Below, in pieces: positions 3,999 through 5,070 of a stretch of DNA of 24,165 nt. Below the pieces are notes generated by a model that saw nothing but the letters and a program-made list of their open reading frames with translations, was not told the DNA's origin and made no database searches. Both the position numbers and the translations under genes were made by a program. Origin of the DNA: a virus (Duplodnaviria > Heunggongvirae > Uroviricota > Caudoviricetes); IMG/VR virus record IMGVR_UViG_648276649_000003; one strand, given 5' to 3'. Each line of letters begins with the position of its first letter. Positions within the stretch are counted from its first letter, which is position 1.

Positions 3999-4044
3999 GT
4001 AGCACGTTCTTGCATATGACGTGGCTACGGGTTTCGAGACCGAC
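3999..4044 (+). repeat. Hairpin-repeat copy B: GTAGCACGT-TCTTGCATATG-ACGTGGCTAC followed by GGGTTTC
   Basis: Imperfect palindrome (about 9-bp stem, 11-nt loop); about 33 of 36 positions identical to copy C in the same orientation; sits upstream of the GIY-YIG gene. Confidence 0.55.
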
Positions 4045-4221
4045 CCGATCATCAAACGAAACATAAAATTAGCTCACATTATGAGGAAAGGTATCTTTTT
4101 GCGCTATGTAAATTCAAAGGGTTAGCCTCATTTTCCCGATGGCTTTCTCAACACTACTAGTTGTGAGCCCTTGCAATGTTCATTAATATACGTCTCACAA
4201 ATAATTCACAGATATTGCAAA

Positions 4222-4995
4222 ATGGATATTACTGAGTTTCCTTCTGGAGTAATTGAACACCTTGGCTGGTATGTATACCGATTGATTGATCCTAGGGACG
4301 GAAGCACCTTCTATGTAGGGAAAGGCAAAGGTAACCGCGTATTTGCCCATATGCGCGGTGAAGTGGCAGCGGCTGATGATGACGAGTTACTGAGCAACAA
4401 GCTAAAGCAAATCAGAGAAATAAGATTAGCGGGACTTGAAGTTATCCATGTCATCCATCGACATGGAATGACTGATGAAAAGACGGCGTACGAAGTTGAA
4501 GCAGCACTTATTGATGCCTACCCTGGGTTAACGAATATCATGAATGGTGCTGGCAGCAATGAATTCGGCGCCGCGCATGTCAAAGAGTTGATAGCAACAT
4601 ATCAACCCGAAACCATAACATTTCATCATAAAGCATTAATGATTTCCGTTAACAGAAGTGCAAAGGATTCAGAGCTTTATGATGCGGTTCGATTTAGCTG
4701 GCGCATTAATGTCTCTCGCGCCAGCCAAGCAGAAGTTATTCTTGCTACTGTAAGGGGAATCGTTCGAGGGGTTTTCATTGCTGATAAATGGCTCAAATCA
4801 ACACGTGAAAATTTCCCTACGATGAAATACTGGGACGAGGATCCTGACTTTGAGGCAACACAAAGTTCTCGCTATGGTTTTGAAGGTCGAGAAGCCCCAC
4901 CTGAAATAGCAAATCTTTATCTTGGAAAAAAAATACCAGATGAATTAAGAAAAAAAGGAGCTATGTCCCCGGTCCGTTACTCACCTAATTTTTGA
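4222..4995 (+). CDS. GIY-YIG nuclease-domain protein with uncharacterised C-terminal domain (about 150 aa)
   Basis: ORF track starts at a TTG (4171); the first ATG is 4222 (MDITEFPSG...). N-terminus carries the GIY-YIG signature: YVYRL...[14 protein letters not shown], downstream YEVEAAL (catalytic Glu position) and NIMNG (Asn). Visibly AT-rich relative to neighbouring phage genes. Confidence 0.7.
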
Positions 4996-5020
4996 GTCTT
5001 TAAGTGATAAGCATAAACCG

Positions 5021-5070
5021 CAGCACGATCTTGCATACGACGTGCTACGGTTTCATTTATCTCCGACCGG
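5021..5070 (+). repeat. Hairpin-repeat copy C: AGCACGATCTTGCATACGACGTGCTACGGTTTC
   Basis: Lies between the convergent stops of the GIY-YIG gene (4995) and pin (5053); palindromic stem AGCACG/CGTGCT with conserved loop TCTTGCATA; T-rich after the stem, so a possible bidirectional terminator. Confidence 0.55.

Follow-up and report, generated by a model that had tools for sequence, protein, structure and literature searches.

A PD-T4-3/CMoRE gene in the variable slot beside the pin invertase of a defective prophage at thrW

In the 24,165-nt stretch of viral DNA analysed here (hereafter the window), the gene at 4222..4995 very probably encodes CMoRE, the modification-dependent restriction enzyme first named PD-T4-3, and should act by the mechanism published for a protein 98.8% identical to its product. 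The gene itself is already known, as it was found in 2022 and its mechanism and structure were solved by January 2026; unlike the gene, its address, i.e., a cargo slot next to the invertase gene pin, is perhaps undescribed. The gene, the two domains of its product and its upstream region are located as follows:

4222..4995, plus strand: CMoRE / PD-T4-3 coding sequence, 257 aa plus stop (ORF list, PADLOC, PDB, PHROG)
4222..4590, plus strand: GIY-YIG nuclease domain, with Y17, Y19, Y31, R39 and the acidic lid D52-D53-D54-E55 (Pfam and residue check; roles from PMC12923530)
4591..4992, plus strand: putative C-terminal modification-sensing domain, about residues 124-257 with an approximate boundary, containing Y127 (role from the 5hm-dCTP complexes of PMC12923530)
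4034..4221, plus strand: upstream region of the cassette, presumed native promoter (188/188 nt identical to O157:H7 TT12A)

The open reading frame runs from an ATG at 4222 to a stop codon at 4995, with a TTG-extended form from 4171 in the ORF list. In RefSeq, the same 774-nt coding sequence of strain Combat11I9, to which positions 2900-6200 of the window are 100% identical, is labelled “LEM-3-like GIY-YIG domain-containing protein.” Among Pfam models, PF22945 (LEM-3_GIY-YIG) matches residues 28-110 (E = 2.4e-14, 54 bits for a gathering cut-off of 27) and the classical PF01541, on residues 16-100, stays below its cut-off (13.7 vs 22.6); the C-terminal ~130 residues are covered by no Pfam or NCBIfam model, and an NCBIfam search with the 257-aa protein returned no match. 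Over its whole length, on the other hand, the protein is accounted for by the PADLOC model PD-T4-3 (PDLC04031; residues 1-256 on a 256-position model, E = 2.2e-140), by a full-length match to PHROG 5356 and by its best PDB matches, namely 9U75/9U8D (E = 1e-172) and 9U7U/9U7Z (E = 1e-150), all deposited under the title “GIY-YIG domain-containing protein.” It is identical to the O157:H7 CMoRE (9U75) at 254/257 positions (98.8%), the only differences being E55D, Q169K and N197H, and to the APEC O1 CMoRE (9U7U) at 219/257 positions (85%). At a coverage of at least 80%, the CMoRE locus is present in 806 of 5426 complete E. coli genomes (~15%). PD-T4-3 was renamed CMoRE by Liu et al. (Nat Commun 2026; PMC12923530), according to whom Vassallo et al. 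(2022) had first obtained it from E. coli ECOR68; the ECOR68 attribution rests on PMC12923530, since the string “PD-T4-3” is absent from the text of Vassallo et al. (2022), where the names presumably stand in the figures.

The O157:H7 protein has been solved both in apo form (9U75) and with 5hm-dCTP (9U8D) (PMC12923530). [quoted passage not shown] The protein is a tetramer, of which both assembly and defence are destroyed by V92S/L96S as well as by loop deletion (PMC12923530). With Mg2+ or Mn2+, purified CMoRE degrades 5hmC or 5ghmC DNA and spares C or 5mC DNA; it has no strict sequence specificity, needs two modified cytosines and cuts at CN11/N9G with 2-nt 3' overhangs (PMC12923530). In line with this substrate range, T4(hmC) is still sensitive to CMoRE and T4(C) escapes (PMC12923530). 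Expressed from its native promoter, the O157:H7 construct lowers the plating of T2, T4 and T6 by ~10^5-fold, and the APEC O1 allele gives weak defence from its native promoter (PMC12923530). Deletion of PD-T4-3 from the clinical isolate NILS69 renders it sensitive to Tevenvirinae phages, to which the specificity of the system corresponds (bioRxiv 10.1101/2024.12.20.629700). More distantly, a 48%-identical homologue from Capnocytophaga is a modification-dependent nuclease, which at high concentration also cuts Mu DNA (PMC12366544). Of note, lytic jumbo phages of Serratia, Pectobacterium, Pantoea, Klebsiella and Pseudomonas encode full-length homologues with 38-45% identity (records H63-H79; e.g., Serratia phage Moabite 6406-7161 and Pseudomonas phage OBP 158703-159449), some of these homologues being annotated “homing nuclease”; they could serve to attack co-infecting phages whose DNA is modified.

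At the residue level, Y17, Y19, Y31, R39, R80, V92, L96 and Y127 are all present in the window protein, which exhibits the GIYxY-YIG motif as defined in PMC12923530, i.e., three tyrosines plus Arg and Glu. Its nuclease domain is identical to that of the crystallised O157:H7 protein apart from E55D, the acidic loop reading DDDE (52-55) as in APEC O1 versus DDDD in O157:H7. Relative to 9U75, the sensing domain differs at two positions, Q169K and N197H, with N197 common to the window protein and APEC O1. Upstream, the 188 identical nucleotides are shared with O157:H7 TT12A, the CMoRE of which has the crystallised sequence. It is because the named residues are kept and the 188-nt upstream region is the same that the published mechanism is assigned to the window allele. 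The initial annotation had read a GIY-YIG signature at the N-terminus, which PF22945 corroborates above its gathering score, and a C-terminal region devoid of recognised motif, where indeed no Pfam or NCBIfam model applies; the modification-dependent restriction factor it considered plausible is exactly what the PD-T4-3/CMoRE family has been shown to be (PMC12923530). Its claim of a new, undescribed function does not hold, since the protein falls, over its entire length, into a characterised family.

By analogy with the O157:H7 protein, the C-terminal domain of the window allele would bind a flipped-out 5-hydroxymethylcytosine or glucosyl-5hmC at its edge, and a dimer would read two modified cytosines ~21 bp apart. 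The N-terminal GIY-YIG domains (Y17, Y19, Y31, Arg, Glu; Mg2+ or Mn2+) are expected to cut between both cytosines at CN11/N9G, leaving 2-nt 3' overhangs, while the DDDE loop (52-55) over the active site would exclude unmodified host DNA. The active form is predicted to be a tetramer, i.e., a dimer of dimers, and the outcome would be a direct, non-abortive degradation of incoming T-even DNA with the C or 5mC DNA of the host being spared. Small ORFs flanking the gene have no domain matches, which fits a single-gene system without a partner. Many single-gene prophage nucleases act instead as abortive-infection toxins, killing the infected cell and not selectively the phage DNA, and the 4A acidic-loop mutant of CMoRE, which is more active and cuts ordinary DNA, is toxic (PMC12923530). 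Yet, CMoRE cultures survive and grow normally at an MOI above 1, from which a direct, non-abortive defence follows, and in CMoRE cells T4 DNA is lost genome-wide with host DNA intact (PMC12923530); with the same reported for the ECOR68 system, an abortive toxin has a negligible probability here. Direct restriction of modified DNA is thus the reading retained for the window allele.

The window is almost wholly prophage, the main elements of which around the CMoRE gene are the following:

203-2899: IS66-family element, inserted relative to Combat11I9, with ORFs at 255-932 (HTH_Tnp_1), 932-1279 (TnpB_IS66) and 1299-2870 (DDE_Tnp_IS66)
3110-3442, minus strand: FlxA-like gene (PF14282)
left part of the window: baseplate and tail-fibre module with the pin-invertible segment
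5053..5607, minus strand: pinE-type serine DNA invertase, the conserved neighbour defining the slot (Pfam Resolvase 8.9e-52 and HTH_7 5e-13; RefSeq pinE)
middle of the window: S24 repressor, replication-region HTH protein, DUF2303 and the Dam-type methyltransferase listed next
13298-13984, minus strand: Dam-type N6-adenine DNA methyltransferase, early region (PF05869, E = 1e-45)
21544-22707: tyrosine integrase
22722-22797, minus strand: thrW tRNA-Thr(CGT)
22912-24165, minus strand: proA

With integrase, thrW and proA at the right end, the prophage sits at thrW, the position of CP4-6 in K-12. No second copy of the thrW attachment site lies inside the window; comparison with L001 / Combat11I9 places it ~170 nt beyond the left edge. 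At the junctions of the IS66 element, ~10 bp are duplicated (193-202 and 2900-2909). At ~12114-12123, a deletion of ~4.5 kb relative to Combat11I9 connects the DNA-circularisation gene, at its middle, with the start of that for the tail sheath; lost with it are the genes for tape measure, tail assembly and tube as well as most of the sheath gene. As a result of the IS66 insertion and this tail-module deletion, the prophage is defective, the CMoRE cassette being intact. Between the FlxA-like gene and the cassette, the ~550 nt at 3443-3997 contain no credible gene, RefSeq placing there a “hypothetical protein” and an 87-nt “capsid protein” pseudogene; the end of this interval, 3839-3997, recurs as a conserved segment ahead of the hairpin in other prophages.

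In such a decaying prophage, the CMoRE allele might be silent, or its specificity or activity might have been shifted by the three substitutions. The weak defence given by the APEC O1 allele under its native promoter (PMC12923530) would agree with this, as would the NILS69 data, which suggest that native expression is limiting for some phages (bioRxiv 10.1101/2024.12.20.629700). A consensus promoter and terminator scan made no call for the CMoRE gene at its thresholds, and only a weak sigma-70-like pair was read by eye, namely TTGTGA (4161-4166) and TAATAT (4184-4189), with a spacer of 17 nt and 8/12 matches, which might act as the CMoRE promoter. Against this view speak an intact ORF, the 188 upstream nucleotides shared with the O157:H7 locus, substitutions that are conservative or natural elsewhere (DDDE and N197 in APEC O1), and the wide occurrence of exact or near-exact copies, which suggests purifying selection; a silent or altered allele therefore appears quite unlikely. 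Expression and activity of this CMoRE allele in its own strain would be expected.

Two kinds of signals, i.e., hairpin repeats and the vestige of a tRNA gene, border the cassette:

3998..4029, no strand assigned: left hairpin copy (CGTAGCACGT...ACGTGGCTACG), left edge of the cassette (repeat search, folding)
4030..4042, no strand assigned: anticodon-arm remnant of tRNA-Ser(CGA), GGTTTCGAGACCG, vestige of the serU attachment site (alignment)
5018..5049, no strand assigned: right hairpin copy, with a full stem at ~5015-5053, between the convergent stop codons (repeat search, folding)
3608..3639, no strand assigned: third, degenerate hairpin copy (32 nt aligned with the right copy at 75% identity)

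The left and right copies are direct repeats (88% over 26 nt), and the core motif of the hairpin occurs 3 times in the window for 0.15 occurrences expected. Compared with shuffled sequences, folding is strong for the right hairpin (z = -4.2 on the plus and -5.0 on the minus strand), moderate for the left copy (z = -2.5) and no better than the shuffles for the third copy at 3608-3639 (z = -0.44). The pin gene is convergent to the CMoRE gene, with stop codons 57 nt apart, and the right hairpin is kept beside pin whatever the cargo (L003, L004, L005, L007); it is probably a bidirectional terminator common to CMoRE and pin. A strict terminator scan did not call it, as its loop exceeds the limit of the scan. 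The hairpin was also considered as a crossover site for Pin, a role that seems unlikely, as it is without the 26-bp layout of two half-sites that characterises hix/gix/pix sites and lies outside the invertible segment. Searched in 100,044 species-representative genomes, the hairpin was not found, so that it seems confined to E. coli-type prophages absent from those genomes. As a separate matter, the sole match of Rfam over 2800-5800 is to CssrB (Shigella chromosomal sRNA B), at 5019-5075 on the minus strand, i.e., over the right hairpin and the 3' end of pin; with 32 bits for a gathering score of 76 (E = 4e-4), this score rules out membership of that family, although the CssrB sRNA may itself derive from a pin 3' region.

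Pairwise comparisons support the view of CMoRE as a separately acquired cassette bracketed by the hairpin repeats, as they reveal both an empty site and an exchange of cargo. In the CMoRE-free L057, L010 and L016, ~100-190 nt matching 3839-4033 stand directly against pin with a single hairpin, i.e., an empty site; the order hairpin, cassette, hairpin of the window thus corresponds there to that segment, one hairpin and pin. In L109, the same left hairpin is followed by ~120 nt of the same arm, then by a 334-aa cargo protein and the right hairpin. Homology to other CMoRE loci (O157:H7 L003; L004/L005) starts at 4012-4025 of the window and continues through pin. The composition also deviates, the gene having 43.3% GC (GC3 34.9%) versus 54.1% for the tail module at 5053-12000 and 50.6% for the window; the AT-rich dip extends beyond the CMoRE gene, the stretch 2871-5052 having 42.7% GC. 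The cassette thereby exhibits the traits of moron-type cargo, namely a discrete insertion relative to an empty site, flanking signals and a deviant GC content (43% vs 54% in the tail genes), and its flanks would serve as promoter and terminator.

The hairpin bracket is not universal. In O157:H7, the left border consists of the 3' 66 nt of the serU tRNA-Ser(CGA) (L003 2925-2990) plus the K-12 flank of that tRNA gene, which alignment identifies as an attachment-site junction, and among IMG/VR contigs the left border is a serU half in ~25, a hairpin copy in ~17 and a half-hairpin in ~13. The window keeps of this tRNA only the GGTTTCGAGACCG remnant at 4030-4042; ARAGORN found no tRNA at the cassette border, the serU piece being a mere 3' fragment seen by alignment. 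From these borders, we infer that a serU-integrating phage originally carried CMoRE as its terminal gene, which would later have joined other prophages via the short CTAC..GGTTT homology of hairpin end and tRNA.

To what extent the slot varies was assessed with a hairpin-pattern search, by which 112 IMG/VR contigs were recovered, 89 of them with at least 900 nt upstream of the hairpin. Their slot content is distributed as follows:

CMoRE, 98.8-100% identical: 61 of 89 contigs
215-aa protein of L007: 3 of 89 contigs
other content: 25 of 89 contigs

The 215-aa protein (WP_001288820.1; L007 3273-3920) has no Pfam or PADLOC match, and neither has a 691-aa slot protein found in L010, L018 and L061. 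Two IMG/VR contigs (L016 and L036) carry Septu in the slot (PtuA, E = 1e-136; PtuB, E = 8e-33), L027 a 278-aa DUF6387 protein, and the 334-aa protein of L109 has a weak ClpP/SDH-protease match. The other content also includes a metallophosphatase and the bare int-dinI end of a dusA-integrated phage. In a P2-like phage, pin stands without cargo, and in e14 of K-12 mcrA directly follows pinE, co-directional and with no hairpin. The gene on the left of CMoRE varies as well by locus, being AraC, a type II RM system or FlxA-like; in L004 and L005 (87-2763; two E. coli chromosomes), a type II restriction endonuclease and a cytosine methyltransferase lie directly left of it. Occupation of the slot by CMoRE, McrA, Septu and unknown proteins supports the pin-adjacent position being a variable cargo hotspot. 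While it is well established that prophages have defence hotspots (Vassallo et al., 2022), no paper describing the pin-adjacent one in particular was found in the literature searched.

Most of what the initial annotation had stated about the locus is borne out by these comparisons: it had placed the gene convergent to Pin at the end of the tail-fibre module, where pin is indeed identified by its Resolvase and HTH_7 domains; it had described the gene as AT-richer than the flanking phage genes, to which the extent of the dip can be added; the direct hairpin repeats it saw are those at 3998-4029 and 5018-5049; and both the separately acquired cassette and the variable slot with anti-phage cargo, which it proposed, agree with the empty sites and the occupancy survey. 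The position it gave for mcrA in the e14 slot was right in substance, orientation and hairpin apart.

The same note had held a homing endonuclease as the alternative, i.e., a free-standing, selfish GIY-YIG gene cutting its cognate empty site to spread. Repeats do bracket the gene and an empty site exists, PHROG 314 (“homing endonuclease”) gives a weak match restricted to the GIY-YIG region (E = 0.0022), and jumbo-phage homologues were labelled “putative homing nuclease” by their depositors. However, what the protein matches along its whole length is a family with demonstrated modification-dependent restriction activity, no NUMOD, IENR1 or HTH-type DNA-binding module is found in Pfam at E values up to 1, and other loci have unrelated cargo in this slot (Septu, McrA, unknown proteins), which points to recombinational exchange of cassettes and not to nuclease-driven homing. 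Homing is in consequence a very improbable explanation, and CMoRE as exchangeable defence cargo the preferred one.

As one more copy of a defence enzyme carried by ~15% of complete E. coli genomes and published between 2022 and 2026, the gene itself is of little consequence. Its identification is nonetheless of use for annotation, the RefSeq label still mentioning only a LEM-3-like GIY-YIG domain, and it leads to the prediction that the strain should be resistant to T-even phages whose DNA carries hmC or glucosyl-hmC, which bears on the choice of therapeutic phages. The remaining lead is the uncharacterised cargo found in the slot of other prophages. As the slot is a small and well-delimited hotspot, its other occupants become, through guilt by association, candidate defence genes, namely those for the 215-aa, 691-aa, 334-aa and DUF6387 proteins. 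It is possible, albeit rather doubtful, that at least one uncharacterised occupant of this slot, lying between the pin terminator hairpin and the prophage end and bounded by the ~32-nt hairpin, is a new anti-phage system, with the hairpin as a recombination substrate for cargo exchange.

Among known systems, the GIY-YIG catalytic fold is common to CMoRE, to I-TevI-type homing endonucleases and to the N-terminal domain of UvrC, the latter being the nearest structural neighbour of the CMoRE nuclease domain (PMC12923530). Unlike them, CMoRE possesses a third tyrosine, a 15-residue acidic lid and a sensing C-terminal domain, and has no homing-type modules. McrA (EcoKMcrA) of e14 shares with CMoRE the slot and the functional class, but is an unrelated HNH nuclease annotated as methylcytosine-directed, not 5hmC/5ghmC-only, and is co-directional with pinE without the hairpin. 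Type IV enzymes of the PvuRts1I/AbaSI type cleave between two modified cytosines at a set distance, in a similar CN11-13/N9-10G pattern, by means of a nuclease fold other than GIY-YIG and of an SRA-like sensor domain. Their specificity, like that of CMoRE, is for 5hmC and 5ghmC as opposed to C (PMC12923530). Closer still, the APEC O1 CMoRE is of the same family, with 85% identity and the same architecture, tetramer and DDDE loop. The O157:H7 CMoRE resembles the window in its 257 aa, its identical named catalytic, oligomerisation and 5hmC-contact residues, its convergent pinE neighbour and its intergenic hairpin; it differs by its left border, i.e., the 3' half of the serU tRNA in place of a second hairpin copy, and by its host prophage, at serU versus thrW in the window.
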